Positions 13,901 to 29,384 of a DNA stretch of 64,000 nt are shown piece after piece (position 1 is the first letter of the stretch; the number at the start of each line of letters is the position of its first letter). The translations under genes and the position numbers were made by a program. Under the pieces are notes generated by a model that saw only the letters and a list, made by a program, of their open reading frames with translations, ran no database searches and was not told the origin of the DNA. Origin of the DNA: an uncultured Verrucomicrobiota bacterium (GTDB lineage: Bacteria; Verrucomicrobiota; Verrucomicrobiia; Limisphaerales; J093); NCBI GenBank assembly GCA_964535555.1, contig CAZHUS010000011.1, positions 16,804-80,803 of the forward strand, given 5' to 3'.

Positions 13901-14966
13901 CGGGGGCTGGCAGGATGCCCGAATCCTCCGCGATTTGAGCCAGTGCCGAGAGGGTATTGGTGCCGGCGGGATCGTTCCGGGGGCGCGGCGTTCTTTCGCG
14001 ATCCGGCGGCACGAGCCGGGCCGACACGACGGGCTTGTTGAGCTGCAGGGCGAGGTCGATGCGCGTGCCCTCGACCGCGCTCAGGCGCCGCGTGTCTTCG
14101 ATGCGCTTCGGTTCCAGCCGCGTGTAAACGGGGTAGGTGAGATTGGCGTCGGCACGTTCGAGTCGCGGATACTCGAAGGTGGTGACCTTGAACTCCCGGG
14201 TTTCATCTTCGCCAAACTCGATCTTGTAGAACAGGTCCGAACTGACCCCCGGCACGGTGCCGCCGAACATGGGATCCGACAGGCTCTTCACCAGGGCGAT
14301 CCGGCGCGTCGAACCGTCCGGTTCGCGCACCACGAGATCCACGTTCGCGGGAACCGGTCCGCCAAACCGCGCCATCACCACCAGGCTCTCACCGCGCTCG
14401 AGTTGCGTGTCGCCGGGGGTGACGGTGATGCCGGAAGGAAGCCGCGGGCTGGCGGCGAGCCGTTGGGCGGCCCCCGGTTGCAGGCGCGTGAAGGCGAAGA
14501 CCACGAGTCCCAAGGCAAGGAGGTTGGCCGCCTGGCCCGTCCAGACCCGGGACCAGGGAATCACCTGCGGCCAGGGGTGACGGTAGCTGTGGTCCAGCAC
14601 CTCATCGACAAGACGCCGTTGCAGGAAGCCAGGTTCGACGTCGGGTTCCGTCTGGGCCTGGACCGCCGTGAGCAACCGGCCTTCCAGCTCCGGATGCCGG
14701 ACTTCGAGGAGTCTTGCCAGCCGTCGCCAGTCGGGTTGGGCCCGGCGATGTCTCCACGCCAGGACTGCCGCGGCGAGGAATCCGAGCGTTGCGGTGACCG
14801 GAAGGACCCACCGCGAGCTGCCCGCGAGCTCACGCGTCAGGGTCAATGCGGCGAGTCCGGCAAGCAGGGTGAACACCCAACAAACGGCGAGCTTGCAGGC
14901 GAGTTCAAGTTGACGCTGCCGCCGCCAGAGCGGCATGAGGCGCGACTTCAGGAAAGGATCATTCAT
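10992..14966 (-). CDS. large membrane-anchored coiled-coil protein (DUF4175-like), Q/E/R-rich
   Basis: The start MNDPFLKSRLMPLWRRQRQ at 14966 overlaps the upstream stop as ATGA. Two N-terminal TM helices are followed by long Q/E/R-rich coiled-coil and G/Q/P-rich low-complexity regions. Position after the BatA-like gene is typical for this family. Confidence 0.75.
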   Translation of the reverse strand: MNDPFLKSRLMPLWRRQRQLELACKLAVCWVFTLLAGLAALTLTRELAGSSRWVLPVTATLGFLAAAVLAWRHRRAQPDWRRLARLLEVRHPELEGRLLTAVQAQTEPDVEPGFLQRRLVDEVLDHSYRHPWPQVIPWSRVWTGQAANLLALGLVVFAFTRLQPGAAQRLAASPRLPSGITVTPGDTQLERGESLVVMARFGGPVPANVDLVVREPDGSTRRIALVKSLSDPMFGGTVPGVSSDLFYKIEFGEDETREFKVTTFEYPRLERADANLTYPVYTRLEPKRIEDTRRLSAVEGTRIDLALQLNKPVVSARLVPPDRERTPRPRNDPAGTNTLSALAQIAEDSGILPAPVSLLVATNQPSATLEGFTLEASGTYHLELVDADGRTNKLPASFVFSALKNRTPELKIASPRGDSRPSALEEIAFEGSVWDDFGVEAHGLAYTLAGQETRYLDLGRPVPAREQRPFRHLLRLEDLGVAPDQLLAWYVWADDIGPDGAVRRTAGDMYFAEVRPFDEIFREGQGAEGQQQQQGQQPGEQGEGSPSARLAELQKQIINATWRLQRDHHTGKSKVAESYSKDATVVRDSQAQALEQATEASGETRDARTAAFWKTALKEMELALAELEEAVNSPEPLPTALAAEQSAYQALLRLQQREYEVTRNRNRSQGQQAGGRQQQMQRQLDQLELTQDENRYETERQAQAPQSSERREQLQVLNRLAELARRQQDVNERLKELQTALQEARTEQEREELRRELKRLQEEQREMLADVDELQQRMDRAEEQSRMADQRQQLDQARQDMQRAAEATEQGAVSQALAAGTRAQRQMQDMRDELRRESAGEFGEELREMRSDARELSRRQEAIQQELDQLASTERQSLSDSAERQQLVEQLADQKGRLTNLVERATQVSQQAEASEPLVSQHLYDAVRRFTQDDGSVVKEMQQELLDRGMLTRSLLERLEQTAASEGAKSLEVTAEMLRQGYLPQADSAEERARAGIDEMRRGVERAAERVLGDDTEALRTAQRELDALTEQIEREVARAERGESATADDEQAPGGDRSEQGEQNREGRQPGEGAGERQPGRQPGEGNSQQAQAGQPQNQGQPGQGQGQGQGEGQRRDGPQQAQASGQPGPGEGEQNPGETGAAGQAPGDRAGAGRDGQRQPRNADQARDGSNQRRGGSLQERGAPDGGGGGGVPVADALDQFMEGGNRRGSGPITGEEFGPWSDRLREVEEMVDLPSLRSDIATARERARQMRQDFRREQKKPDWAVVRLDIVKPLVEVRQQIAEELARREPASDLVPIDRDPVPVRFAELVRRYYEELGKQR

Positions 14967-17062
14967 GGCGTTGCCTCCACAGTCGTGGTCCGGCGGGCAG
15001 CCCATCCCGCCAGCAGGGTTTCCGTGAGCACCAGTCCAAGCGCAGCCACGACGAGCCAGCGCCATAGTTTCTGGCGTCCCTCAAGTTCGGCACTCTGTAG
15101 ACGGGCCTGGTGCACGGCGGTTACGGCGGGCGAGGCGGAAGTTCGGGCGAGGGGCACTCCGAGACGTTCCAGGTCGTCGGGCGCGAGTGGCGCGGTGCGG
15201 CTTTCGACCGGATCCAGATTGATGGCGAACCGGTTCGTGGCGCCGCCGCGCACAAGCGTGTAAATGCCTGGAACTCGCGTCTGGTCGAACTCGGTTGCCG
15301 TGTCCGGCAGCGCGATCGAAGCACCCTCGGGGGTAAAGGCCACCCGCGCCTGTTGCTCCGGCGTCGCGGCGAGCCGAATCTGGTCCCCGACCTTGTGGAG
15401 CGCCGGAACGGCAGGCCGGACACCACCCAACTCGAGCATCGAGTACAACAAAGGCACGAACTTCGACGACAACGCGAGCTGGCTGTCGGCGGCGTGCCAT
15501 CCAGACGCCAAAACAAAGACACGCCCCTTCCCGGCGGTGACTTCGACCAGCGCCGGATCGCCGTTGTCGAATCGCGCGAGAACCGCGGCCGTTCCCAGCG
15601 CGTCGGCGTTCAGCCGGCGGTACTTCCAAAAGTGGATCTTCGTGAAGTCGCTGAATCGCGGGTCGGCGAAGGGAACAAAGAGCGGATGCCGGAAGTCGAT
15701 CTCGCCAAGCAGCCCGTAATTGGTGAACCGCCCCTCCTCGCCCTGCAGGGTCGCGAGCTCCGGGATCGCGGACAACGCCGCGAGGGCAGCCGGGGTTTTC
15801 GGTGCGAACAGCACGGTCTTGCCGGCGCGCACCGCCTCGGCCACGGCTTGAGCCGTGGCCGGGATCATCGGTTCCGTCACCACCAGCAGCGCCGCTTGGT
15901 TGAATTGGTCTGGACCCGGCGTGGAACCCGGATCGGGGGCGAGCAGTTCCACGGTCAGGCGGCGCGTTTGCTGCAGCGCCCGGGTGAGGAAATAGCGGCT
16001 GCCGCGGGTATCCCCGGCAGGTTCGGTTCCCAGATACAGGACGGCGGCGTTGGCCGGTTGAGGCGGGACGGCAAACAGCGTGTTGTCGAACGGTTCGTCG
16101 TCGCCCCGCAACAGGATGCGCTCGGTGGGAATGCCTTCCGGCGGTGGGGGCACCACGACAATCCGGTTCTGCCCGGCGGGCACGTACACCGAGAGGGGGT
16201 TGGTGACGTAGGCTCCCGCCGCGTCTTGCCAGCCGAGCTGGAATTGTTCAATCCGGGAGTCCGGCTCGTTGCTCACCCGCAAACGGGTGCCCGCCTCAGC
16301 GGGTGCGCTCTCGGCGGTTTCCGCCGCCAGTTGCAGGCCGGCGTTGCTGGTTTTCAGCGGCGGGGACGCCGCGATGGTGACCTCGATCCCCTTCGGCCAT
16401 TCGTACGATTGCAGCTTCTCGAGGTGGCTCCCGCTTTGCAGATCGCTGAAAAGCAGCAACTCGCGGCGGCTCACCTCGGGTTCCCCGGGCGCGACCTCGG
16501 CCAGCGCTTCCGCGGCCCGGACCAACGCCTCATCGAGCTGACTTCCACCCCAACCAGGGGCAAGATCGGTCAGGCGCGATCGGACCAGCCCAACCCGCTC
16601 GGTGAAGGGGGTGGCGCGCCATTGCTCGAACGTGACCAGCGGCGTGAGTTCATGGTCGTAGGCGAACAGGGCGACCTGGTCGTTGACCGTGACCTGCCGG
16701 AGCCAGGTCTCGACGCCAGTTCGCGCCGCATTCCACAGGCCGTCCCGCCGCATGCTGGCACTGGTGTCGAGCAGCAGCGCCACCTTGCGCACTTCAGACG
16801 CGGGGGGAGGCGCGGAGACCGCCTGCCGCCAAAACGGCCGGGCAAATCCCAGCGCCAGGAGCACGATGACCGCGCAGCGCAGGAGCAGGAGCAGCAGGTG
16901 CTCGAGCCGGTTCCGACGCGTGAGCCGCGGCGGCTCCGGACGAAGAAAAATCAGCGAACTGAACCGCGTCCGCTCCCGGGTGGTCTTGCGCACCAGGTGA
17001 AAGAGCACCGGCAACGCGATCGCGAGCCCCCCCAGCAGAAAGAGCGGCGCCAGGAAACTCAT
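14963..17062 (-). CDS. BatA-like protein: aerotolerance-regulator N-terminal TM domain plus von Willebrand factor A domain
   Basis: MSFLAPLFLLGGLAIALPVLFHLVRK...RLEHLLLLLLRCAVIVLLALGFARP, then the VWA MIDAS motif VALLLDTSASM. There is a 4-bp overlap with DUF58 upstream and with the DUF4175-like gene downstream. Confidence 0.8.
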   Translation of the reverse strand: MSFLAPLFLLGGLAIALPVLFHLVRKTTRERTRFSSLIFLRPEPPRLTRRNRLEHLLLLLLRCAVIVLLALGFARPFWRQAVSAPPPASEVRKVALLLDTSASMRRDGLWNAARTGVETWLRQVTVNDQVALFAYDHELTPLVTFEQWRATPFTERVGLVRSRLTDLAPGWGGSQLDEALVRAAEALAEVAPGEPEVSRRELLLFSDLQSGSHLEKLQSYEWPKGIEVTIAASPPLKTSNAGLQLAAETAESAPAEAGTRLRVSNEPDSRIEQFQLGWQDAAGAYVTNPLSVYVPAGQNRIVVVPPPPEGIPTERILLRGDDEPFDNTLFAVPPQPANAAVLYLGTEPAGDTRGSRYFLTRALQQTRRLTVELLAPDPGSTPGPDQFNQAALLVVTEPMIPATAQAVAEAVRAGKTVLFAPKTPAALAALSAIPELATLQGEEGRFTNYGLLGEIDFRHPLFVPFADPRFSDFTKIHFWKYRRLNADALGTAAVLARFDNGDPALVEVTAGKGRVFVLASGWHAADSQLALSSKFVPLLYSMLELGGVRPAVPALHKVGDQIRLAATPEQQARVAFTPEGASIALPDTATEFDQTRVPGIYTLVRGGATNRFAINLDPVESRTAPLAPDDLERLGVPLARTSASPAVTAVHQARLQSAELEGRQKLWRWLVVAALGLVLTETLLAGWAARRTTTVEATP

Positions 17063-18021
17063 GCGCCCCCTCCCGCATGGAATCGCGCTGCCCGCCGGAC
17101 CCTCCGCCCGCGGGCCGTCCGGCTCTGGAGAAAGTCAAAGAGCGCCAGCTCGAGCGGTTGATCCGTCCCCAGGCGGGAACAAGTCGCGCCGAGCCGGTCG
17201 GCAAGCTGCCGCAGCCCGGCGCAGTGGGCCTCGAACCGTCGAAGGTAACCTCCACGTGCCGTGCCCGGATCGAGCATCAGGGACTTCCCCGTCTCGACAT
17301 CCTCGAACAAGGCGGGATCGCGGAAGGAAAACGTGATTTCCGCCGGGTCGAGCACCTGGAACAGAACCAGTTCGTGACCCGACGCCGCCAGCTGGATCAG
17401 GGCCTTTTCCAGGCGGTCAACCGGTGCGAGAAAGTCCGAGAGGACAAGGATCAATCCCCGCTTGCGTACGATCTCGGCAATGCGCTCGAGCGGGGCGACC
17501 ACGTCGGTGCCGGTCCCGGCTGCCGGTTGTTCGAGCGACAGCATGAGCCGCCGCAAATGGCCGAAGCGGTGTCGGGGCGGCAGGTAATCCCGGACCTGGG
17601 CATCGAACGTGAGCAACCCGGTGGCGTCGCCCTGCTGGTGGAGGAAGTAAGCCAGCGTGGCCGCGAGCGTGGCGGCATATTCCGCCTTGGTGTAGCCCAC
17701 CGAGTTGAACGTCATGGACCGGCTCTGATCGACGACCAGGTGGCAACGCAGGTTCGTTTCATCTTCGAACCGCTTGAGAAAATAACGGTCGCTCCGCGCG
17801 AAGACTCGCCAGTCCAGGTAGCGCGGATCGTCACCGGGCGTGTATTGGCGATACTCGGTGAACTCGACGGAGAAGCCGTGGTAGGGGCTGCGATGGAGAC
17901 CGCTCCAGAAACCCTCGACCACCACCCGCGCCCGCAACTCGAGGTTGCGAATGTTCATCACCACCTTCGGGTCGATCAGCGATCCGGAGAAGGCGACTGG
18001 CGTGGCGGTCGTGGCGGTCAC
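17059..18021 (-). CDS. DUF58 domain protein (MoxR-associated)
   Basis: The GTG start at 18021 overlaps the moxR stop as GTGA. Motifs: HGFSVEFTEYRQYTPGDDPRYLDWRVFARSDRYFLKRFEDETN. Confidence 0.85.
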   Translation of the reverse strand: MTATTATPVAFSGSLIDPKVVMNIRNLELRARVVVEGFWSGLHRSPYHGFSVEFTEYRQYTPGDDPRYLDWRVFARSDRYFLKRFEDETNLRCHLVVDQSRSMTFNSVGYTKAEYAATLAATLAYFLHQQGDATGLLTFDAQVRDYLPPRHRFGHLRRLMLSLEQPAAGTGTDVVAPLERIAEIVRKRGLILVLSDFLAPVDRLEKALIQLAASGHELVLFQVLDPAEITFSFRDPALFEDVETGKSLMLDPGTARGGYLRRFEAHCAGLRQLADRLGATCSRLGTDQPLELALFDFLQSRTARGRRVRRAARFHAGGGA

Positions 18022-19115
18022 TTCGTCAGGGGCGACTTGACGGACTCGACGAGCCGGCGAATGACATCCTCGACCCGCACCCCTTCCGCTTCGGCGCGGT
18101 AATTCAACAGGATGCGGTGCCGCAGCACCGGGGCGGCGAGTGTCTGGATGTCCTCGATGCTCACATGCGAGCGGCCCTTGAACAGGGCGCGCGCCTTGCC
18201 CCCGAGCACCAGGAACTGACCCGCGCGGGTCCCGGCGCCCCAGCTGATCCACTGGTTGACGAAGTCCGGCACTCCCGGCTGTTGCGGGCGCGAGGCGGCG
18301 GCGAGTTGCACCGCGTAGCGCACGATTTCCTCGGCCACGGGCACCTTCCGCACCATTTCGTGGAACCGGAGCACATCGTCCCCGGTGAAGAGCGCCTGAA
18401 TCGGCGCCGCCGGCGCGGCGGTGGTGCGCAGGACCACCTGAACCTCGTCTCCTTCCGGCAGGTAGTTCATCACCACGTTGAACATGAACCGGTCGAGTTG
18501 CGCCTCGGGCAACGGGTACGTGCCTTCCATCTCGATTGGATTCTGGGTGGCCAGGACGAAGAACGGCTCCTCGAGCGCGTGCCGTTGGCCCGCGGCGGTG
18601 ACCTGGTGTTCCTGCATCGCCTCGAGCAAGGCCGCCTGGGTCTTCGGCGGCGTGCGGTTGATCTCGTCGGCCAGGATCATGTTCGCGAAGACCGGCCCGC
18701 GCACGAACACCATCTGGCGTCCGTCCGCGGCATCCTGGAGGATCTCCGTGCCGGTGATGTCGGCCGGCATGAGGTCGGGCGTGAACTGGATCCGTTGGAA
18801 GCGGAGGTGGAAGATGCGGGCGATCGATTTGACGAGCAGCGTCTTCGCAAGACCCGGCGCGCCGGTGATGAGGCAGTGGCCTCCGGCGAACAGCGCGATC
18901 AGGATCTGCTCGATCACCTCCTGCTGGCCCACGATCACCTTGCCCAGTTCGGCTTCGATCTGGGCGCGGCCGGCCACCAACCGTTCGAAGGTCTCGCGCT
19001 CGTTCGCGGCCGGAGTCGCCGCGGCGGCGGTGGGGTTCTGGAGGACCGGTGGCAGGGGCGGCGTCGAGGAGGGGGCCTGGCTTTCCGCGGGCGGCGTTGG
19101 GGTTCGATAGCTCAT
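18018..19115 (-). CDS. moxR: MoxR-family AAA+ ATPase
   Basis: Walker A LITGAPGLAKTLLVKS and Walker B MILADEINRTPPKTQAALLEAMQE. C-terminal lid motifs are present. Confidence 0.9.
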   Translation of the reverse strand: MSYRTPTPPAESQAPSSTPPLPPVLQNPTAAAATPAANERETFERLVAGRAQIEAELGKVIVGQQEVIEQILIALFAGGHCLITGAPGLAKTLLVKSIARIFHLRFQRIQFTPDLMPADITGTEILQDAADGRQMVFVRGPVFANMILADEINRTPPKTQAALLEAMQEHQVTAAGQRHALEEPFFVLATQNPIEMEGTYPLPEAQLDRFMFNVVMNYLPEGDEVQVVLRTTAAPAAPIQALFTGDDVLRFHEMVRKVPVAEEIVRYAVQLAAASRPQQPGVPDFVNQWISWGAGTRAGQFLVLGGKARALFKGRSHVSIEDIQTLAAPVLRHRILLNYRAEAEGVRVEDVIRRLVESVKSPLTK

Positions 19116-19119
19116 CGCA

Positions 19120-19974
19120 TCAGTGGGTCATGACGTAATACAGCACGTTGATCGCCAGGGGATAGGCGGCCTTTTCGGAGAAATTGCGGAAGTAATACCC
19201 GTCCTCGCCTTCGCGTTCCCAGCCGTCGCCGTTGTCGGTGTTGTGCGTGGCCAGGACCATCAGGCGCTGGTCGTCGTCGAAGATGGCCTTGTGGTGCACC
19301 TCGCGGGCGTCGGGCCGCTCCCACGTGACGCCGTCGTCGCGGCTCGCGTCCACCCACCCGATCGCGGGAATCTGGTACTTCTCCTTGATCTCGAACACGC
19401 CGTGGTAGAGAGGATGATCGAGCCGCAGTTCCTCGAAGGCGCGGTTGGGGAACACCTCGCGCAGGACCTCCTCGCAGTTCTCCCATTCGCGTTCGCCCCA
19501 GAAATCATCCAGCCAGAGAAAACCGCCGTTGAGCAGGTACTCGCGGAGGGCGATGATCTCCTCCGGATCCAGCTCCAGTCCGCCCGGTTCGACGATGTAG
19601 ATGAACGGGTAGTTCCGGAGCTCGGGGTCCGTCAACCGGAGGATCCGGCCGTCGGGGTCGACTTTGAGCGAAGTGATCTGTTGCAGCCGGAACGAGAGAT
19701 TCAAGTCGCTGTCCGGCAGGTCCGTGGTCCAGCCGCCGCCCCGAAAGCCGCCCTGGCTGTACCGGACCCGCACGAACGTGAACACGTCCTTGTCGAACGC
19801 GGGCGGGTTCGTCCAGTTCGGCGTCCCGGTGCTGTGCGACGGGATTTCGCGGGCGGTGCGGAGGCTCTCGCCGTAGTCGCCGTACCAACCCCGTCCCCGG
19901 CGACGCTGCTGGCTGTACGCAACCACGGCCATCGCCAGCAGGCCAAGGAGAAGGATGGACTTCCAAACCCTCAT
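19120..19974 (-). CDS. DUF4159-like secreted protein (Bat-like operon member)
   Basis: The start MRVWKSILLLGLLAMAVVAYS at 19974 overlaps the upstream stop as ATGA. The signal peptide is followed by YPFIYIVEPGGLELDPEEIIALREYLLNGGFLWLDDFWG. Confidence 0.7.
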   Translation of the reverse strand: MRVWKSILLLGLLAMAVVAYSQQRRRGRGWYGDYGESLRTAREIPSHSTGTPNWTNPPAFDKDVFTFVRVRYSQGGFRGGGWTTDLPDSDLNLSFRLQQITSLKVDPDGRILRLTDPELRNYPFIYIVEPGGLELDPEEIIALREYLLNGGFLWLDDFWGEREWENCEEVLREVFPNRAFEELRLDHPLYHGVFEIKEKYQIPAIGWVDASRDDGVTWERPDAREVHHKAIFDDDQRLMVLATHNTDNGDGWEREGEDGYYFRNFSEKAAYPLAINVLYYVMTH

Positions 19975-22679
19975 TCCGCGGCGCCTCCTGCGGAGCTCGC
20001 CGGAAGCGCGGCCGTGTGCGTTTGGGCTGCGGGCGGAGGGGGAGATGGCTCCATTTCGAGCAGGAGCCGCAGGGCGTCGCGATAACGGGGCGCCTCCTCG
20101 AGCGCCTGGAGGAGGTGACGGCGCGCCGTCGGGTCTCCCAGGGCGTGGAGTTGACGGGCCAGACGATAGTGCACCTCGGCCGGGTTGGCGGGGTCCAGTT
20201 GCAGCAAGGCGCGGCAGGCAATGATGGTCGCCGATCGGTCGCCAATGCCCTCGGCGGCTTCCGCGAGGTAACGGTAGGGCGCCGCGACCAGCGGGTTCAC
20301 CGCGAGATAACGCCGGGCGTTGGCCACGACGGCCGGCCAATCCGTGGCCGCGCGGGCGAGTTCCATGAGACGCCCAAAGGCGTCCAGGGCCTCGCCATCC
20401 TGCTCCGCGAGCCTTCTCCAGGCCTCGCGTTCCGCGGCCTCGTCCCCGAGTTCGCGGCACACCTTCGCCAGGCTGCGGTAGGCGCTGTCCGAGCCGGTGA
20501 ACCGTGGGTACAAATCCACGAGCTGTTCCAGCACAGGTCGCGCGTCGGCCCAGCGCTTTTCCTCGATCAAGTCGTTCGCCTGACGCGTCAGGACGTAGAA
20601 GTTCTTCGGGTGGCCCCTGGCCCAGAGCTTCCAGGCCGTGTCGTCGGCACCACCGGTGAGCAGCGCTTCGAGTTCCGGCTTCTCCCAGTCGAGGCCGGGC
20701 GCGAGTTCGTCGGCCAGGCGCCGGGCGAAGGTCTCGAAGCCTTCCTCGAACTCGTCCATGGGCACCGTGTGCGCCTCGAGCGCGTCGTTGATGGCCTTGC
20801 CATCGCCGAGATCGCGGAGGATCGCCTGCAGCGCCCCGGCGCCGAAGCGGTCGACGAGGAACTCAATCACCAGCGAGGACTGGTAGTACGCAAACTGGAG
20901 GTGGGTGGGTGTCGGCGGCGACATGAACGCGCCGCTGAGCTCCGAAACCGGCGTGAGCTCGCCTTCCACAATCATCTCCCGGTACCGCGGAATGAGGCGC
21001 TCGCCCCAGGCGGGATTCGCCTGCCGCTCTTCGTAAACCGAAATCCCCTCGCTCACCCAGCGCGGCATCTTGTTGTGCGTCAACTGCAGCGTGATCACGT
21101 GGGTGAACTCGTGCCAGAGCATCGATTCCCAGTTGAAGGCCTGCCCCGGACGCGACGCCGGGCTGTTCGCGGTGATCACCTGGCCGAAGCAGACGCCCAG
21201 GAAACCATGGTTCTGCGGCATCCCAAACGTGCGCACGGCGAAGTCTTTCTGGTCGGCGAAGATCTCGATTCGCACGGGCCGGGTGAGCTCGAGGCCGTAC
21301 TTGGGACTGAGCCGGGCGCGCGCCTGTTCGAGCAACTCGAGCACCCGGGCACCGTAAAGGCCGGCTTCCTGGCGGGTCATCCGCACCACGAAATGCTCGT
21401 TCGTCAGAACGGCGAACTTGTCCATCGCATCCCGCAGCGTCACGAGGTTCAAAGCGGCGATGTCGTAGCCGTCGGCTTCGTGCACCTCGTCCGCAAGGCG
21501 CCAACCTTCCTCGTCCTCACCGAGCCGCAGGAGATCCTGGGCGAGCTGCGACTTCGCGGGGAGGAATTGGCGGTCGAATCGCAGCGCCCGCCGTTGCAGG
21601 GCCGCGCCTTCGGTAAAGCGATAGTTCTGGGACAGCTTGCGGCCCATGAGATGCGGCACGCGCGGATTCGTCGGCCAGAACTTCAGCGCCATCTCGACGG
21701 CTGCCTGCTCGCGGGCCGGCTGGTGCTCCAGGTGCGCGGCCACGGCGGCATACGCCCAGGCCTCCGGGTGGTAGGGATTCACCCCGTGGACGCGGCTGAT
21801 CAGGTTCCGGGCCTCGTCGTAGTTTTCCGCGTCAACCGCGCGGTCGATGAGGAGCAGGAGGCTGGAGACGTGGTTGGTATGGCGTTCGAGCGCCGCCTCG
21901 AGCGAGCTGATCATGAGCGTCTTCTCGCTGGGCTCGTACGCCCGGGCCAGGCCGAAGTGGAGATCGGGATCGTCGGGAAGCAGCTTGAGGCCGTCCTGAA
22001 ACGTCCGCGCTGCGAGCGCGTAATCTCCCTTCTCGAGCGCGAGGCCGCCGATGGCGAGGTAGGTGTCGCGCAGCTTGGGATCGAGCTTCTTCGCCGGTTC
22101 GAAGACCCGGTCCAGGACCCGTTTGGGGTCGAGGCCCTTGGCCATCGCGGCCTGGCCGAACACGACCAGGTCGGGCGCCTCCCGATACGCCCAGGGACGC
22201 GCGGTCACGAGTTCCGTGATCTCGTCCACGAACGCGGCGGCGCGTTCGGGCTGGTTCTGCATCTGGAGCACGTCGCGGCCAACCCAGCGCAGGCGGATGC
22301 TGCGTTGCTCGTGGGCGAGGGCGTTGGTGAGGGCGTTGTAGGCGTCAGGATAGCGGCCGAGCTCGAACAGCGACCGGACCAACAGGAGATGCCATTCGTG
22401 TTCGTCGCCCGTGTCTTCCACCCCTTTCTCGGCGGCGGCGATGCACTCCGCGTACCGACCCGCGAGGAAATCGCTGCGTCCCTGCTTGAGATCGGCCGCC
22501 CAGGCACCGGCGACCACCAACAGGGGGACCAGGAAAAGCAGAAAGCCGGGCAGCCCGGCGGGCCACGGGGTGCCCGCCCTGCCTGCTGGCGGTTCACAAG
22601 CTGCAAACCGGCCCCACGGCGCTCCGCGGTGCCGGGAGCGGGTGTGACAGCGACCGGGAATGTTGGTGATCCGCGGCAT
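19971..22679 (-). CDS. TPR-repeat protein with a peptidase-MA-like HExxH zinc-metalloprotease domain
   Basis: Start chosen is ATG at 22679, downstream of the repeat at 22748-22853. There is an N-terminal TM/signal (LPGFLLFLVPLLVVAGAWA) and several TPR-like helices. Zinc motif: WHEFTHVITLQ...WVSEGISVYEE. It is the first gene of the minus-strand operon. Confidence 0.75.
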   Translation of the reverse strand: MPRITNIPGRCHTRSRHRGAPWGRFAACEPPAGRAGTPWPAGLPGFLLFLVPLLVVAGAWAADLKQGRSDFLAGRYAECIAAAEKGVEDTGDEHEWHLLLVRSLFELGRYPDAYNALTNALAHEQRSIRLRWVGRDVLQMQNQPERAAAFVDEITELVTARPWAYREAPDLVVFGQAAMAKGLDPKRVLDRVFEPAKKLDPKLRDTYLAIGGLALEKGDYALAARTFQDGLKLLPDDPDLHFGLARAYEPSEKTLMISSLEAALERHTNHVSSLLLLIDRAVDAENYDEARNLISRVHGVNPYHPEAWAYAAVAAHLEHQPAREQAAVEMALKFWPTNPRVPHLMGRKLSQNYRFTEGAALQRRALRFDRQFLPAKSQLAQDLLRLGEDEEGWRLADEVHEADGYDIAALNLVTLRDAMDKFAVLTNEHFVVRMTRQEAGLYGARVLELLEQARARLSPKYGLELTRPVRIEIFADQKDFAVRTFGMPQNHGFLGVCFGQVITANSPASRPGQAFNWESMLWHEFTHVITLQLTHNKMPRWVSEGISVYEERQANPAWGERLIPRYREMIVEGELTPVSELSGAFMSPPTPTHLQFAYYQSSLVIEFLVDRFGAGALQAILRDLGDGKAINDALEAHTVPMDEFEEGFETFARRLADELAPGLDWEKPELEALLTGGADDTAWKLWARGHPKNFYVLTRQANDLIEEKRWADARPVLEQLVDLYPRFTGSDSAYRSLAKVCRELGDEAAEREAWRRLAEQDGEALDAFGRLMELARAATDWPAVVANARRYLAVNPLVAAPYRYLAEAAEGIGDRSATIIACRALLQLDPANPAEVHYRLARQLHALGDPTARRHLLQALEEAPRYRDALRLLLEMEPSPPPPAAQTHTAALPASSAGGAAE

Positions 22680-22747: not shown

Positions 22748-22853
22748 TTGGGGTCAAACCTTGACATTCGACATTCTCCCGCGGCGCGCCGGTGCCGATC
22801 TCAGCGCCAGAGTCCACGGGATGAATTGTCCAATAGTCAAGGTTTGACCCCAA
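22748..22853. repeat. inverted-repeat (MITE-like) element, family 2, copy 1
   Basis: Terminal inverted repeats are TTGGGGTCAAACCTTGAC...GTCAAGGTTTGACCCCAA (18 bp, perfect) with subterminal ATTCGACA / TGTCCAATA. It has the same architecture and orientation as 27822-27907. Confidence 0.85.
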
Positions 22854-22922: not shown

Positions 22923-24122
22923 ATGGGGAAAAATCGGTCCGTGAGAACCGCCGCCATCCACCTCCTGCGATCCCCCGGCGCTTTCGCGCCCCACCGCGGC
23001 GCGTGGGAAACCCTCTGTCAGCGCGCAGGGTGCCACTCGCTCTTCCATTCGGCCGAGTGGCTCGGTGCGGCCTGGTCCTACCCCGGAAAGCCCTTCCTGC
23101 TCGCGGCCGTCGAGGACTCGTCGGGCTGGGCGGCGGCGCTGACGCTCTGCCCGCGGTTCGATACCGGCGGTCATCTGGTGCTTCCGGCGCGCGCCCTCAC
23201 GATTCTCCCCCACTTGATGTGGATCTATCCGTCCCTGCCGGTCGCTGCGTGCGCTCCGGACCGCGACCCGGGCCACGTGGATCGTCTGGTCGCCGAAGCG
23301 CTCGCGGCCCAGCCGTGGGATGTGCTGAGTTTCGACTATTTGTCAGCCGACACCGACTGGCTCGAGGACGGCGTCCGCCGCCTGGCAGCCCGGCGTGGCT
23401 GGCATGTCGAGTCCGTTCCCACCTCGGACGAGGCCTGGCTCGATTTCCCCGCGGGGCCGGAGGCCTACTGGGCGGAGCGTTCCGGATCGCTCAAGCGGAA
23501 GCTGGCGAAGGCCACGCGGGAACTCGCTGACCGCGCCCGGATCACTCACGAAGACCTCGCCGCCGGGGCACCCAACCTGACCGCCTGCTTCGAACGGTTC
23601 CAGCCCACGTTCGAACGCACGTGGCAGAAAGGGGCGGGTCTCAGCCCGTTCGACCAGCCGCACCGCGCGTCCAACCTGCAGGCGCTCGAACCGTTCTTCC
23701 GCACCGGTCGGATCTCGGTGCCGGCCCTGCTCGCCGACGGCGTGATCATCGCCTTCGAGTTCTGGGTCCGCGGAGGCGGCGAGCTGTTCGGCATCGCGCG
23801 CGGACACGACCCCGCATTCGCCCACTACTCGATCGGCAGCCAGCTCACGCAATGGACCATCGCGGAGGCGTTTCGCCGCGGCGTGACCCGCCTGTACCTC
23901 GGCCCGGTGAACGCCAGCCCGCACATGGCGTACAAGGAGCGCTGGCTGACCGGCCGCCGTCACAATCACCGGTTGGTCGTGACACGACCCCGCTCCCTTT
24001 ACGGAGGGGTCCACGGACTCCTGGCCCGGCACCCCCGGCTTCGCACGCTTTGGCGCAAGGCCCGCCTCGATGCGCTGGCCCGGGGCGCCTTCTACGCCCT
24101 GCGTGCGCTGAAACGCCGATGA
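22923..24122 (+). CDS. GNAT-superfamily acyltransferase, FemAB/CelD (BioF2-like, Acetyltransf_6) type
   Basis: The C-terminal half (FFRTGRISVPALLADGVIIAFEFWVRGGGELFGIARGHDPAFAHYSIGSQL...LYLGP) matches the GNAT fold pattern of CelD/FemAB-like proteins. The stop overlaps the NRPS start as ATGA. Confidence 0.6.
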   Translation: MGKNRSVRTAAIHLLRSPGAFAPHRGAWETLCQRAGCHSLFHSAEWLGAAWSYPGKPFLLAAVEDSSGWAAALTLCPRFDTGGHLVLPARALTILPHLMWIYPSLPVAACAPDRDPGHVDRLVAEALAAQPWDVLSFDYLSADTDWLEDGVRRLAARRGWHVESVPTSDEAWLDFPAGPEAYWAERSGSLKRKLAKATRELADRARITHEDLAAGAPNLTACFERFQPTFERTWQKGAGLSPFDQPHRASNLQALEPFFRTGRISVPALLADGVIIAFEFWVRGGGELFGIARGHDPAFAHYSIGSQLTQWTIAEAFRRGVTRLYLGPVNASPHMAYKERWLTGRRHNHRLVVTRPRSLYGGVHGLLARHPRLRTLWRKARLDALARGAFYALRALKRR

Positions 24123-27100
24123 CCTCGCACCCGGCGGCCCCCCTCCAGACGGCGATGCTCGCCACGACGCGAGCGCAGGCCGGGGCGTACGTCCAACAAG
24201 TCGAGATCGTCTTCCCGGACGGCACCGACCCGTCACGCCTTGCGTCCGGTTTCGTGCGGCTTACCGCACGCTTTCCGGCCCTGAATCAGGAGTTCACCCC
24301 AGACCTCCACGGCGGCTCGCGGGTGCAACTGAACGAGAACGCCAGGGTGGAGGTTCGGGAGGAGTCCGGTGCCGCACCCGACGCGGCGGCCTGGATGCAG
24401 CTGCTCGCCGTTGACCGCGCCGAAGGCGTGGATGGCCACCGGCTGCGGATCTGGCCACAAGCGCGCCGGGTCTTGTGGACCTTTCACCACGCCGTCCTGG
24501 ATGGACGCAGCACCGCCCGGGTCGTCCGCGCCTGGATCGACGAGGCAGCGGGGACCGCCCCGGACCCCGGCGCCCCATGGAGTCCTTGGAGGCCACTCGC
24601 GGACCCAGACGCCGTCCGCACCGCCCGCAAGTGGGCCGAACAGTTTCCCCCCGAGCCGGAGGACCCACCGCCCGGGCGTGTCGCGTATCAGTCCGCCGTT
24701 CGGCCTGTCGCCATCGATGCCGCCGCCGTGGCAGGCAGGCTCGGCGTTACGGTTCACACCCTCGCGCAGGCGACCGCGGCCCTCGTGGTGGGCCGAATGG
24801 TTGACCGTGATGCCGTGGTCCTTGGTCAGGTGCGCGCCTGCGGCCCGTCGGGCACGGTCGGGTTTGGCATCAACACGGTCCCTCTCGTCCTCGGCTGGGA
24901 TCCCGGCGAGCCGTTGCGGGCACTGCTGGCCCGCGCTCGCGAGGCCAGCCGTTCGTTACGGGAGGTTGCTCCCATGGCCCCGGCGCAATGGCTCAACTTG
25001 GTCCGCCCCCGGAGCCGGCAGGCCTGGGACGCCGTGCTCGTGTCCGAACGCGGAACTCTCGACGAGCTCGTGGCCCGGCCGGCCGCGCGGGTGACTCTGC
25101 ACGAGCGTTCCGACGATCCCGTCGTCCTCGCCGCCTATCTCGGGTCGGACGCGCGCGTGCAGGTCGAATCCACCGTCCTCGCGGCGCCGCTGAACGACTG
25201 GATCGCGGACACCTGGCGGGAGCTGCTCGAAACCCTCGGCGATCTGGCGGAGACGGCATGTCATCGGCTCCTGCCCCCCGAGCACGAGACAGCAACCGGT
25301 GACCCCGAGCCGCGCACCGCGTTGTATCCGGAGTTCGCGGCCGTGGCGCAGGCGCACCCCGACCGCCCAGCCATTGCCTCGCGTGGATCCGTCGTGACCT
25401 ACAGCCAGCTTGCCGAGGCGGCCGGCCACGTTGCGGCCACGCTCGCAACGGCCGGGGTTGCGCCGGGCGACCGGGTTGCGGTGCGGCTCACCGAGCGCCC
25501 GCTTCTGCCGTCGGTACTGCTGGCGACCCAGCAGGCCGGCGCGGTGTTCGTTCCCTTGGATCCGGAGCATCCGGCGGCGCGACACGATCGCATCTGGCAG
25601 GATGCCCGTCCGCGGCTGTTGGTCTCGGAAACCCCGCCCTGGCGCGAAGAAATCCCCCGCCTTGACCCGAAGGACTTGCCCGCGGTCGCGTCGGCGGCCG
25701 GGGGTGGATGTCTGCCGCAATTCGTGGACCCGGAGGCGCCAGCGGCCCTGCTCTATACGTCTGGAACGACGGGAGTGCCCAAGGGGGTAAGGCTCACCGG
25801 TGCGGCCATTGGGGCGGAGGCGCGCGCGATCGGGAGATTGATCGGCATCGGGACGGAGGACCGCGTGCTTCAGTTTGCGTCGCCCGGCTTCGATGCGTTT
25901 CTCGAGGAGGCGTTCCTCGCCCTGTTGCACGGCGCCACCCTGGTCCCACGTCCGCCGGACGCACTCGTGGATTTCGAGGCTTTCACGGCCTCGCTCGAAC
26001 GCGAACGCGTGACGATCGCGGACCTGCCAACGGCCTTCTGGCGGGGCTGGACGGCCTGGCTTGCGCAGAAGCCAGGAAGGTTTCCCGTCGGATTACGAGC
26101 GGTCATCATCGGTGGCGAGGCCGCAACCGAAGCGGCGCTGGAACACTGGCGTGCCGCGACGCCGGGCGGCTGTCAGCTCTGGAACACCTACGGTCCGACC
26201 GAGGCGACCATCGTGGCCACCGCGCATCCGCTTCACTCGATCCCCGGGGATGTCCGCGGGGATCCGCCCATCGGCCGCCCGCTGCCGGGAGTCGTGGTGC
26301 GCGTCGCGGGCCGGCATGGCTCGCCCCGGCCGCCGGGAATGCCCGGGGAGATGTGGATTTCCGGTCCAGGGGTTTCACCGGGCTATTGGGGACGCCCCGA
26401 ACTCGACGCAGTCGCGTTTGTGGAACACGACGACCGGCGCTGGTACCGGACGGGGGATCGCGCAAGGTGGAACGAGTCAGGCGATCTGGTGTTCCTCGGG
26501 CGGACCGACGACCAGATCAAGCTTCGGGGACACCGGATCGAGCCGGAGGAGGTCCGCCGGCAGGTCGAACGGGTCCCGGGCATCCAGGCCGCCCACGTGG
26601 GGCTGGCCGGCAATCCACCGATGCTGGTGGCGTGGGTGGTGGCGCAACCGGCAGGGGCGGAGGTGTCCGAGCGCGTCCGCCAGTCTCTGGCCACGGTGCT
26701 GCCCGCCCCGCTGGTTCCCGGCGCCGTGCTGAGGGTGGCCGCCCTGCCACTGACGGCCCGGGGCAAAGTGGACCGGACGCGCTTGCCGCTGCCTTCGGCA
26801 GGGAGCGTCGCCCTAGCGTCGGACGATCCCATGGTCGCGTGGGCCTGTCGCCTGTTCGCCGGCATCCTGCGTCGACCGGTCACCGAGATCGATCCTGCCC
26901 AGGACTTTCAGCGGCAGGGAGGCGACTCCCTTTTGGCGATGGAACTTTCGCTGCGGCTGCGGGAGGCTGGGCTTGCCCTCGAACCCGGCGAGCTTGCACA
27001 CGACTCCGCTCCGGTCGCCATCGCCCGACGCTTTGCCCATCCCACCCACACGACTCCCAGCCGCTGGGAACCCGTCGTCGTGCTGCGCCCAGGGAGCGAG

Positions 27101-27838
27101 GGTTTCCCTCCTTTGGTGCTGATCCACGCCACACCCGGCGATGTTCTCGGCTACGGAAACCTGGCCGCAGAACTGCCGGACAATGTGCCGTGCTGGGGGG
27201 TGGTTTCGAGGGTCTTGCACGAGCCGAACCATCCTCATCGCTCGATTCCGGAGATGGCGACGGATTACCTCCGCGCGCTTCAAGCACGGCTCGGCGGCAA
27301 GCCCTTCTTCCTCGGGGGCTGGTGCTACGGCGGACTGGTGGCCTACGAGATGGCGTGCGCCCTCGAACGCGCCGGACACCCAGCCCCGCTGCGGCTGCTG
27401 CTCCTCGAAACGTGGAGCCCTCCACCCGCAGCCTTCGCCCTCCGCCTGCATTGGCGCGCGCTGCAGTTACGGACGCTCCTGGGACAGCCGCGTGGATGGC
27501 TGGGCGCGTATCTCCGCCACAAGTGGCGGTGGGGACGCCCATCCGGTGCGGAGCCCGCCGCTTCCACCCCGCGTCGCGACGCCGCGGTGGCGCACAATCT
27601 GGCCGCGGCAGCCTGCTACCGGGCCGGGTCCTACCGGTTGCCGGTGGACTTGTTTCTCACGCCTGACCAGGGCACGGACGTGCTGCCGCTGCCCGAGGGA
27701 GGCTGGTCGGTGCTGGCACCGTCCCGGACCATGCACGCGTGCGCGGGAGGTCATGCGGACCTGCTGCATCCGCCTCACGTGGCTGGCTTGGCGGCGCGCA
27801 TCACGGGCCTGCTCGCTCAAATTGGGGTCAAACCTTGA
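24119..27838 (+). CDS. single-module non-ribosomal peptide synthetase, C-A-T-TE
   Basis: C domain: FHHAVLDGRS. A domain cores: LLYTSGTTGVPKG, NTYGPTE, GEMWISGPGVSPGYW, YRTGDRARW, GRTDDQIKLRGHRIEPEE, LTARGKVDR. T domain: GGDSLLAMEL. TE: LIHATPGDVLGY, GGWCYGG (Cys codon at 27323-27325), GGHADLL. The start at 24119 was chosen over the longer ORF. Confidence 0.9.
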   Translation: MTSHPAAPLQTAMLATTRAQAGAYVQQVEIVFPDGTDPSRLASGFVRLTARFPALNQEFTPDLHGGSRVQLNENARVEVREESGAAPDAAAWMQLLAVDRAEGVDGHRLRIWPQARRVLWTFHHAVLDGRSTARVVRAWIDEAAGTAPDPGAPWSPWRPLADPDAVRTARKWAEQFPPEPEDPPPGRVAYQSAVRPVAIDAAAVAGRLGVTVHTLAQATAALVVGRMVDRDAVVLGQVRACGPSGTVGFGINTVPLVLGWDPGEPLRALLARAREASRSLREVAPMAPAQWLNLVRPRSRQAWDAVLVSERGTLDELVARPAARVTLHERSDDPVVLAAYLGSDARVQVESTVLAAPLNDWIADTWRELLETLGDLAETACHRLLPPEHETATGDPEPRTALYPEFAAVAQAHPDRPAIASRGSVVTYSQLAEAAGHVAATLATAGVAPGDRVAVRLTERPLLPSVLLATQQAGAVFVPLDPEHPAARHDRIWQDARPRLLVSETPPWREEIPRLDPKDLPAVASAAGGGCLPQFVDPEAPAALLYTSGTTGVPKGVRLTGAAIGAEARAIGRLIGIGTEDRVLQFASPGFDAFLEEAFLALLHGATLVPRPPDALVDFEAFTASLERERVTIADLPTAFWRGWTAWLAQKPGRFPVGLRAVIIGGEAATEAALEHWRAATPGGCQLWNTYGPTEATIVATAHPLHSIPGDVRGDPPIGRPLPGVVVRVAGRHGSPRPPGMPGEMWISGPGVSPGYWGRPELDAVAFVEHDDRRWYRTGDRARWNESGDLVFLGRTDDQIKLRGHRIEPEEVRRQVERVPGIQAAHVGLAGNPPMLVAWVVAQPAGAEVSERVRQSLATVLPAPLVPGAVLRVAALPLTARGKVDRTRLPLPSAGSVALASDDPMVAWACRLFAGILRRPVTEIDPAQDFQRQGGDSLLAMELSLRLREAGLALEPGELAHDSAPVAIARRFAHPTHTTPSRWEPVVVLRPGSEGFPPLVLIHATPGDVLGYGNLAAELPDNVPCWGVVSRVLHEPNHPHRSIPEMATDYLRALQARLGGKPFFLGGWCYGGLVAYEMACALERAGHPAPLRLLLLETWSPPPAAFALRLHWRALQLRTLLGQPRGWLGAYLRHKWRWGRPSGAEPAASTPRRDAAVAHNLAAAACYRAGSYRLPVDLFLTPDQGTDVLPLPEGGWSVLAPSRTMHACAGGHADLLHPPHVAGLAARITGLLAQIGVKP

Positions 27839-27907
27839 CATTCGACAATCCCCCACGGCAGCGGCAACCGCGGCGACGAATGTCAAATAGTCAAGGTTTG
27901 ACCCCAA
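27822..27907. repeat. inverted-repeat (MITE-like) element, family 2, copy 2
   Basis: It has the same 18-bp termini as copy 1 (TTGGGGTCAAACCTTGAC / GTCAAGGTTTGACCCCAA). It lies between the convergent NRPS and fumC genes and overlaps both stop codons. Confidence 0.85.
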
Positions 27908-29309
27908 GGGTCTTCTGCGTCGGCCCCACCATGTCCCCGGGCCGCACCCAGCGCTCGAAGTCCGCCTCGCCCACCAGCCCGAGCTGGGCCGCCGCCTCAC
28001 GCAACGTGAGGCCCCGGACGTGCGCTTCCTTGGCGACCTTCGCCGCCTTCTCGTACCCGATGTGCGGGGCCAGAGCAGTCACCAGCATCAGGGAGTTCTC
28101 GACGTTCCGCTGAATCACCGGCCGGTTGGGTTCAATGCCCACCGCGCAGCGGTCGTTGAAGGACACGCAGGCGTCTCCGAGCAATCGCGCCGATTGCAGC
28201 ACATTCGCCGCAATCACCGGCTTGAACACGTTCAACTCGAAGTGCCCGGTCGCACCCCCGACGGACACCGCGACATCGTTCCCGATCACCTGCGCGCAGA
28301 CCATCGTCATCGCCTCGGGCTGGGTCGGGTTCACCTTGCCCGGCATGATCGAAGAGCCGGGTTCATTGTCGGGAATCAGGATCTCGCCGATGCCACTGCG
28401 CGGACCGGAACTCAGCATGCGCACGTCGTTGGCGATCTTCATGAGCGAAACCGCCACGCGCTTGAGCGCTCCGGAGAGCTCCACCATCGCGTCGTGCGCA
28501 GCCAGAGCCTCGAACTTGTTGGGCGCCGTGACGAACGGACACCCCGTGGCCTCGGCGATCTTCCGGGCGACAAGCACATCGTAGCCTTCGGGCGCGTTCA
28601 AACCCGTGCCGACGGCCGTCCCTCCCAACGCCAGTTCCCGCACCGCCTCGAGGGCGTTGCGGAGCGCCCGAATGCCATTCTCGAGTTGTTGAACGTAGCC
28701 GGAGAACTCCTGGCCCAAGGTCAAGGGCGTGGCGTCCATGAAGTGAGTCCGGCCCACCTTCACGATGTCCTTGAACGCCTCCGCCTTCGCCCGCAACGTG
28801 CCCAGCAAACGCTCGATCCCCGGGATCGTCACCTGGGACACCTGCTGGTATGCCGCAATATGCATCGCGGTGGGAAAGGTGTCGTTCGACGACTGCGACA
28901 TGTTCACGTCGTCGTTGGGATGCAGGACCTTCCTGGCGTCGGTGAGCTGGCCGCCATTCAGCACGTGCGCCCGGTTCGCGATCACCTCGTTCACGTTCAT
29001 GTTGCTCTGGGTGCCGGAACCCGTCTGCCAGATGACCAGCGGGAACTCGCCGTCCAAAGCCCCTGTCAGGATCTCGTCGCAAACCCGGCTCACGAGATCT
29101 CGCTTCGCGGCGGGCAGGACGCCCAGGTCGTGATTCGCCAGCGCGGCGGCCTTCTTCAGGTAGGCGAACGCCCGGATAATCTCGCGGGGCATGCTGGCTT
29201 CCGGTCCGATCCGGAAATTGTTGCGGGACCGCTCGGTCTGGGCGCCCCAATAACGGTCGGCGGGCACCTGGACCTCGCCCATGGTGTCGCGTTCAATTCG
29301 GAAGTTCAT
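27891..29309 (-). CDS. fumC: class II fumarate hydratase
   Basis: [28 protein letters not shown], the signature [13 protein letters not shown], and full length of 472 aa. Confidence 0.95.
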
Positions 29310-29384
29310 AGAGGGTCATCTCAATCCGTCACTCGGAGCGGGAGCATGCCAGGCGGGTCCGGCCCGGGGCGAGTCTCCGGTGGG

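Follow-up and report, generated by a model that had tools for sequence, protein, structure and literature searches.

A Fem-like GNAT coupled to a single-module synthetase with a cysteine thioesterase: a possible glycan-decoration pair in a Verrucomicrobiota genome

What does a single non-ribosomal peptide synthetase (NRPS) module make when its thioesterase (TE) carries a cysteine at the place of the canonical nucleophilic serine, and when its gene is coupled to one for a Fem-like GNAT protein? The question is raised by a gene pair in a 64,000-nucleotide stretch of DNA from an uncultured Verrucomicrobiota bacterium (assembly GCA_964535555.1, contig CAZHUS010000011.1), the source of which is a sludge metagenome; we refer to this whole stretch as the window. 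A first-pass annotation, made without database searches, had linked such cysteine TEs to strained-ring release chemistry of the ObiF and SulM type. We find that the region is a real, intact two-gene unit and that the synthetase, as judged from its sequence, is a type I NRPS termination module with condensation, adenylation, thiolation and TE domains (C-A-T-TE), with which all features tested agree. The pair probably does not release a free strained-ring metabolite. Our preferred but tentative reading, in which we place slightly less than even confidence, is that it forms a cytoplasmic decoration module moving an N-capped basic amino acid to an envelope or secreted glycan or to a lipid-linked precursor. 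The two genes and the domains of the synthetase are as follows.

22923-24122, plus strand: Fem-like tandem-GNAT protein of 399 amino acids, PF13480 Acetyltransf_6 (CelD/BcsL type), from Pfam (E 6.7e-15), AlphaFold and Foldseek.
24119-27838, plus strand: single-module NRPS (C-A-T-TE) of 1239 amino acids, starting within the GNAT stop ATGA, from the open reading frame (ORF), Pfam and TIGR01733.
24119-25318, plus strand: N-terminal condensation (C) domain, residues 1 to about 400, with HHAVLDG (His124 at 24488-24490), from a family profile compared with full-length C domains.
25337-26785, plus strand: adenylation (A) domain with the predicted code D592 A593 E596 D635 I G T I V K883 (DAEDIGTIVK), from LgrA and GrsA alignments.
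26843-27007, plus strand: thiolation (T, carrier) domain with GGDSL (Ser937 at 26927-26929), from PF00550 (E 1.5e-9).
27065-27835, plus strand: type I TE domain with Cys1069 (27323-27325), Glu1097 (27407-27409, acid position I), Asp1183 (27665-27667, candidate for position II) and His1212 (27752-27754), from phmmer, a model and conservation.

The GNAT ORF ends in CGATGA and the start codon of the synthetase is the ATG at 24119-24121, so that the single-module NRPS begins within the ATGA of its partner, as the first-pass annotation had it. Its view of a self-contained, translationally coupled pair is also borne out by the ORFs and by Pfam, which places Condensation (residues 5-134), AMP-binding (407-757), PP-binding (909-963) and Thioesterase (998-1101) along the synthetase; the protein scores above the cutoff for TIGR01733 as well. 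The G+C content at third codon positions (GC3) is 0.84 in the GNAT ORF and 0.80 in the NRPS ORF, a strong coding composition in both, and a second copy of the pair at another locus (L001; loci of relatives carry L numbers), with the 4-bp overlap kept, has a synthetase of 63% and a GNAT of 70% identity to those of the window. Because of the high GC3 and this conserved second copy we regard both frames as coding. More widely, the pair is kept at 63-72% amino-acid identity with its 4-bp coupling in at least three other contigs. The core motifs of the module are complete (HHAVLDG, LYTSGTTGVPKGV, NTYGPTE, GKVDR and GGDSL, together with C1069, H1212 and E1097). No sigma-70 consensus promoter was found upstream of the pair.

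The TE is the domain on which the strained-ring proposal turned. The motif GWCYG with its TGC codon at 27323-27325 is present exactly as claimed, as are GGHADLL, which holds His1212, and a glutamate in the acid place, Glu1097 of LLLLETW. In phmmer searches the GGWCYGG of the window TE aligned with GGWCFGG of AB3403 and GGWSFGG of NocB, and the Asp at position I of AB3403 matched LLLLETW. In an AlphaFold model based on 39 relatives (mean predicted local distance difference test score, pLDDT, 92.8), Cys87 (Cys1069) sits where strand 82-86 gives way to helix 88-102, at the classical nucleophile elbow, with Glu115 (Glu1097) directly after strand 111-114, Asp201 (Asp1183) after strand 194-198 and His230 (His1212) after strand 221-225; these placements, including that of Glu1097 relative to Asp1183, are secondary-structure positions and not interatomic distances. 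All 39 relatives have the His and an acidic residue at position I (28 Glu and 11 Asp); Cys serves as nucleophile in 38 of them, and position II is acidic (D/E) in 30. The earlier worry that the Cys might lie off the elbow, or that the His and acid partners might be missing, finds no support in the alignment with AB3403 and NocB, in the model or in the relatives. The TE appears to have a complete triad in the canonical arrangement, in which Glu as the acid would be a family trait, and the domain looks active.

Structural comparison points the same way. The best Foldseek match to the TE model is AB3403 (4zxh; template modeling score 0.72, 24% identity), followed by the TEs of NocB, Vlm2 and Pks13, and the top 50 matches are type I TEs, including those of fatty acid synthase and EntF. 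ObiF1 and SulM are absent from this top 50 and from the 43 phmmer matches at E<=1, and RifR is a weak phmmer match (E 0.012); the window TE does not group with the type II, RifR-like TEs. In ObiF1 and SulM, which cluster with type II TEs, the catalytic Asp occupies position II, after a later strand, and position I of ObiF1 is a Gly (PMC6668435, PMC11298585); AB3403 is the sole other solved Cys TE and combines the Cys with an Asp at position I (PMC11298585).

The substrate of the A domain bears on the same question. We read the specificity code through alignments with LgrA and GrsA, using 1amu chain numbering in which D235 corresponds to D592. Over the pocket segment the nearest match is the ApnA A1 adenylation domain, which we take to be Arg/Tyr-specific; the two align over about 140 residues with hardly a gap, while LgrA requires gaps after LPTAFW. 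According to a survey from 2025 (PMC12283262), the consensus for Arg is D-A/V-E-D-I/V/L-G-A-V/I-T/D-K, and DGEDHGTVVK is listed for Lys. The window code agrees with these at 8/10 and 7/10 positions, and the family variants DAEDIGAITK and DGEDIGTVVK at 10/10 and 9/10, respectively; of 49 relatives, about 38 have DAEDIGTIVK or one of these close variants. Searching the literature for the exact specificity strings gave no match; one related code was found. Since the code and its family variants fit Arg and Lys codes, we predict that the A domain probably activates a basic amino acid of the arginine or lysine type.

The C domain required a family profile for a clear match, as a single-sequence search of the PDB gave only E 0.02. 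With the profile, the best match is McyB (E 1.2e-51), followed by BacC, PvdL, a 461-residue surfactin synthetase fragment (8f7f), SrfA-C and TycB; the top matches span 1e-51 to 1e-39. The C domains of LgrA and TycC (about 1e-20), presumably of the LCL type, and the CDA-C1 and RzmA starter domains (1e-10 to 1e-13) both fall far below the McyB group. The McyB, SrfA-C and TycB domains are, we assume, of the DCL type, and the profile comparison does not separate DCL from starter function. By its position, at the N-terminus of a lone module, the domain would act as a starter domain. The domain ahead of the conserved A-T-TE core is swapped among relatives: the window protein has a C domain there, L090 has one that lacks the catalytic His, L088:8464-12852 carries a formyltransferase in that same N-terminal place, and L015:5755-9825 has an Acetyltransf_1 GNAT with a C-domain remnant. 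In Kiritimatiellales proteins of 2350 amino acids (L020:2740-9804) the order is A-T-C-F-A-T-TE, with the formyltransferase internal. The exchange of C, formyltransferase and acetyltransferase domains suggests that what the family conserves is N-capping of the loaded residue.

The second gene encodes a protein that matches, besides PF13480, the family ATE_C weakly; it has no match to Pfam FemAB (PF02388) or to NCBIfam models. Its AlphaFold model (pLDDT 94.8) has a tandem GNAT fold, and the best Foldseek matches are FemX, Sba18/Sbb17, the L-PGS/A-PGS/MprF group and FemA, with E values of 6e-12 to 1e-9 at identities of only 12-15%, so that the description of the protein as FemAB-like appears sound at the level of the predicted fold. 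Tandem GNATs that use acetyl-coenzyme A (VipF and a GNAT of the clavulanate pathway) are also among the matches. Close and mid-range relatives all share W28, G305, Y337, K338 and W341. The specific family is small, with 12 representatives below 1e-30 among 1.8 billion, and neither the single protein nor alignments gave a confirmed relative when used as queries against genome and metagenome contig collections; the abundance of the exact cassette thus rests on six 90% GNAT clusters and a representative-sequence search.

The company kept by these GNATs is informative. All relatives at 32-38% identity adjoin single-module synthetases that have the same code and a Cys TE, with Wzy_C, GH9 or Polysacc_synt genes alongside. 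At 26-29% identity the relatives are found within exopolysaccharide (EPS) loci that lack a synthetase, one being an exosortase/EpsI locus and the other a SpoIIE-Phosphodiest-GT-GNAT-GT-Wzy_C locus, of a synteny type that elsewhere carries the synthetase. Because GNAT relatives sit either beside synthetases or inside EPS loci, both partners appear to be polysaccharide-locus components in related loci.

The synthetase has homologues of about 1250 amino acids with the same architecture, mainly in Verrucomicrobiota. Scanning species-representative genomes for the TE motif gave 173 relatives, in Verrucomicrobiota, Kiritimatiellota, Lentisphaerota and some Myxococcota and Thermodesulfobacteriota; within this group, Cys TEs of this type are not rare, unlike in the earlier general statement on Cys-TE domains. 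As judged from sequence features, the window protein belongs to a large, undescribed family with a variable N-terminal cap (C, formyltransferase or GNAT) followed by A(basic)-T-TE(Cys); it shares the code DxED(I/V)G(T/A)x(V/T/I)K, the GWCYGG TE motif and the variable N-terminal capping domain. That the cassette had not been described before still holds, in that literature searches turned up neither a description nor a product. In a tree of A-T-TE regions the window protein is sister to a clade from Akkermansiaceae EPS loci (support 99-100%). All Ser-TE proteins fall in one clade (support 100), whose sister is this Cys clade of the window and Akkermansiaceae proteins; another 38 Cys sequences branch outside both. 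With the Ser clade nested among Cys sequences, one Cys-to-Ser change suffices. Members of the Ser clade keep the architecture and the code, and L092 also keeps the PF13480 partner, which counts against a chemistry that strictly needs a thioester intermediate.

Some side branches of the family were seen in the same comparison. A subgroup of A-T-TE(Cys) proteins of about 900-1150 amino acids has the proline-like code DVQFIAQVVK (L021, L024, L028, L030, L037, L041, L042, L052, L053 and L056). In L028, L037, L041, L053, L056 and probably L030 the gene-size pattern around the synthetase is that of the basic-code loci; the neighbor families of these proline-like loci are deduced from the size pattern, Pfam having been run only on L015. 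One member, L024, is labeled Candidatus Saccharimonadales and groups inside the Verrucomicrobiota clade of synthetases; it is probably a mis-binned contig. A siderophore function, suggested by an MxcG-like NCBIfam match, was rejected, as the match covers only A-T, lies far below cutoff, and no aryl-acid genes are present.

Family members are usually found inside polysaccharide loci with glycosyltransferases, Wzx, Wzy and Poly_export. In the Akkermansiaceae clade, the nearest to the window protein, the loci have four glycosyltransferases, two Poly_export genes (start overlapping) and Wzy_C, and the synthetase lies between the Poly_export genes and Wzy_C. The commonest Pfam families among 130 neighbors of 25 Cys-TE loci are GT2 (11), Phosphodiest (10), Polysacc_synt (9), GT1 (7) and PPTase (7); HATPase_c_2, SpoIIE and FkbM are also common. 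As a separate observation, partner-switching-type regulators (HATPase_c_2, SpoIIE phosphatase, STAS and a response regulator) and PF01663 Phosphodiest recur beside synthetases or GNATs in polysaccharide loci (L015:1997-4994, L088:268-3678, L095:1518-4757), which suggests a regulated EPS system of one synteny type.

From the anatomy, motifs, triad placement, code, and family distribution and context we infer a substrate, a cap, a GNAT donor and an acceptor for a decoration pathway of four steps. The A domain would adenylate Arg or Lys, as the code predicts, and load it on Ser937 of the T domain. The N-terminal C domain, in which HHxxxDG is intact, would then N-acylate the alpha-amine from a donor supplied in trans, a role to which the formyltransferase and acetyltransferase domains of relatives at the same place point. 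The Fem-like GNAT, going by its fold, may aminoacylate or acylate a free amine, either on the intermediate or on the acceptor. Finally, Cys1069, activated by His1212 and Glu1097, would take the acyl group as a thioester and pass it to an acceptor that the family context suggests to be a glycan. That all catalytic motifs are intact and that both genes are conserved supports such a role. A precedent is the Pks13 TE, which is among the fold matches and transfers an acyl chain to a sugar.

Several observations weigh against decoration of a glycan by this pair. It lies between a divergent Bat/MoxR-type operon and a convergent fumC, with nuoFG and que genes as other neighbors; no polysaccharide genes are present within about 20 kb in the window, so that this copy is not located in a glycan locus and the acceptor would have to be encoded elsewhere in the genome. 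Neither a membrane transferase nor an exporter is coupled to the pair, and the window has no nearby carrier or ligase gene for the C-domain donor. Going by the fold matches of the GNAT, its donor may be either aminoacyl-tRNA or an acyl-coenzyme A. The neighbor enrichment is partly non-independent, many of the loci coming from related Verrucomicrobiota, and the sequencing runs that hold the cassette are DNA runs only (sludge, soil and freshwater).

Two of the neighbors deserve mention in their own right. The Bat/MoxR-VWA-TPR operon adjoins the cassette both in the window (14963-22607, divergent) and in L001:3153-9444 (same strand); the arrangement differs, and the linkage may be a coincidence or lineage-specific. 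The product of fumC (27891-29315, minus strand) is 80-84% identical to many Bacteroidota fumarases in a genome that is otherwise Verrucomicrobia-like, a likeness that could come from strong conservation or from horizontal transfer.

The main rival explanation is that the pair makes a free small molecule, perhaps N-acyl-Arg or N-acyl-Lys as a cationic lipoamino acid, perhaps a short di- or tripeptide with an N-cap, with TE hydrolysis or side-chain lactamization as the release step and the GNAT adding a residue from aminoacyl-tRNA. We consider this possible, though doubtful. The module stands alone, starts with a C domain and has no acceptor-related gene close by, all of which would suit it, as would a cassette that stays intact in three neighborhoods, the close copies L001 and L002 lying in surroundings that differ from those in the window, and that also occurs with a Ser TE in the non-EPS context of L092. 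The GNAT fold matches Sba18/Sbb17, aminoacyl-tRNA-dependent peptide synthases that act on a small molecule, and PacB-type enzymes add a residue from aminoacyl-tRNA to carrier-bound intermediates. Cyclization of terminal N-hydroxy-ornithine residues by a TE is documented (PMC12283262). What speaks against a free product is that, elsewhere, members of both gene families sit within polysaccharide loci. The pair is not accompanied by genes for export, tailoring or resistance, and an acyl-coenzyme A ligase or acyl carrier protein that could supply a lipid donor is missing.

Alternatively, the pair could be an orphan or decaying remnant of an EPS locus, functionless and carried between repeat elements. 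This possibility draws on a palindromic element that flanks the cassette:

22748-22853, no strand assigned: upstream copy, with arms TTGGGGTCAAACCTTGAC / GTCAAGGTTTGACCCCAA, located ahead of the GNAT gene in the intergenic stretch between the divergent genes, from an arm search of the window.
27822-27907, no strand assigned: downstream copy of the same element, holding the NRPS stop (27836-27838) and the convergent fumC stop (27891-27893), from the arm search and RNA folding.

The two copies, of about 90-106 bp and in the same orientation, bracket the GNAT-NRPS pair and are the only ones in the window, in which the arm occurs four times (two elements) against 0 expected by chance. The cassette is, moreover, detached from glycan genes. 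We nevertheless regard a functionless remnant as very unlikely, as neither ORF is broken or lacks a core motif, the GC3 of the coding frames is high, and the pair is kept with its coupling in other contigs at the identities given above. The 3' copy folds as RNA at -48 kcal/mol (z = -6.7) and is likely a bidirectional terminator.

Release of a strained four-membered ring (beta-lactone or beta-lactam) in the manner of ObiF and SulM is scarcely credible: GxCxG does put the Cys at the nucleophile elbow, and Asp1183 comes after strand 7 and 29 residues before the His, near the 30-residue spacing of ObiF1 and SulM (PMC6668435, PMC11298585), but position I is Glu or Asp in 39/39 relatives against Gly in ObiF1 while position II is acidic in only 30/39, the motif is Trp-Cys-Tyr, AB3403, NocB, Vlm2 and Pks13 lead the matches from which ObiF1 and SulM are missing, the predicted Arg/Lys-type substrate, neither a beta-hydroxy nor a beta-amino acid, would offer no beta-nucleophile for such a ring, and Ser-TE proteins that share architecture and code form a clade nested within the family. 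The inference from Cys nucleophile to strained-ring chemistry in the first-pass annotation is therefore not supported. A Cys nucleophile in an NRPS TE is an unreliable marker of beta-lactone or beta-lactam chemistry, and the position of the acid and the substrate of the A domain also need checking.

Were a glycan the true destination, the pair would name candidate enzymes for N-acylated aminoacyl sugar substituents, which have long been observed and are enzymatically unexplained, and the orphan Cys-TE class exemplified by AB3403 would gain a testable acyl-transferase role. For genome mining, many "NRPS" calls in Verrucomicrobiota, Kiritimatiellota and Lentisphaerota may be envelope-remodeling genes rather than antibiotic clusters. 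A broader and more speculative proposal, one we think rather unlikely, is that synthetases of the N-cap-A-T-TE(Cys) type throughout the Planctomycetes-Verrucomicrobia-Chlamydiae group, sometimes with Fem-like GNATs, constitute an undescribed route that puts N-formyl-, N-acetyl- or N-acyl-Arg/Lys or short peptide stems on lipid- or nucleotide-linked sugars, with the TE Cys as an acyl relay to the glycan.

How, then, does the pair compare with systems already known? ObiF1 and SulM share with it the Cys nucleophile in GxCxG, and ObiF1 is also a C-A-T-TE module, but their triad is RifR-like (type II), its acid occupying position II while a Gly fills position I; the Gln-Cys-Asn motif of SulM is lacking in the window TE, and the substrates of both enzymes carry the beta-nucleophile that the window code predicts to be absent. 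The closer counterpart is AB3403 (ABBFA_003403), an Acinetobacter baumannii termination module with a peptidyl carrier protein (PCP) domain (C-A-PCP-TE; PDB 4ZXH/4ZXI). It has the same four-domain architecture, a Cys nucleophile (GGWCFGG against GGWCYGG) and an acid at canonical position I, and it is the best structural and second-best phmmer match to the window TE. Unlike the window protein, with its Arg/Lys-like code and Glu, AB3403 was crystallized with glycine in the A domain and has Asp as its acid; the window synthetase, for its part, has a Fem-like GNAT as partner and no carrier gene nearby. The product of AB3403 is also not known (PMC10510592, PMC11298585).

The GNAT shares the tandem-GNAT fold of Fem-type aminoacyl-tRNA transferases (FemX, FemA, MprF/L-PGS, Sba18/Sbb17), from which it differs in belonging to PF13480 and not to FemAB (PF02388), in its low identity to them, and in its partner, which is an NRPS instead of a peptidoglycan or lipid enzyme. 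For the proposed pathway as a whole the analogues are DltABCD, which carries out D-alanylation of teichoic acids, and Vibrio AlmEFG, which places glycine on lipid A. As in these, an adenylating enzyme is predicted to load an amino acid on a phosphopantetheinyl carrier for a surface polymer. In the window, by contrast, the A and T domains and the Cys hydrolase-fold transferase are fused, with an N-capping domain, in one protein, no MBOAT or AlmG-type membrane transferase is present, and the amino acid is predicted to be cationic. A route of this kind would be the NRPS counterpart of surface-charge remodeling by Dlt, AlmEFG and MprF.

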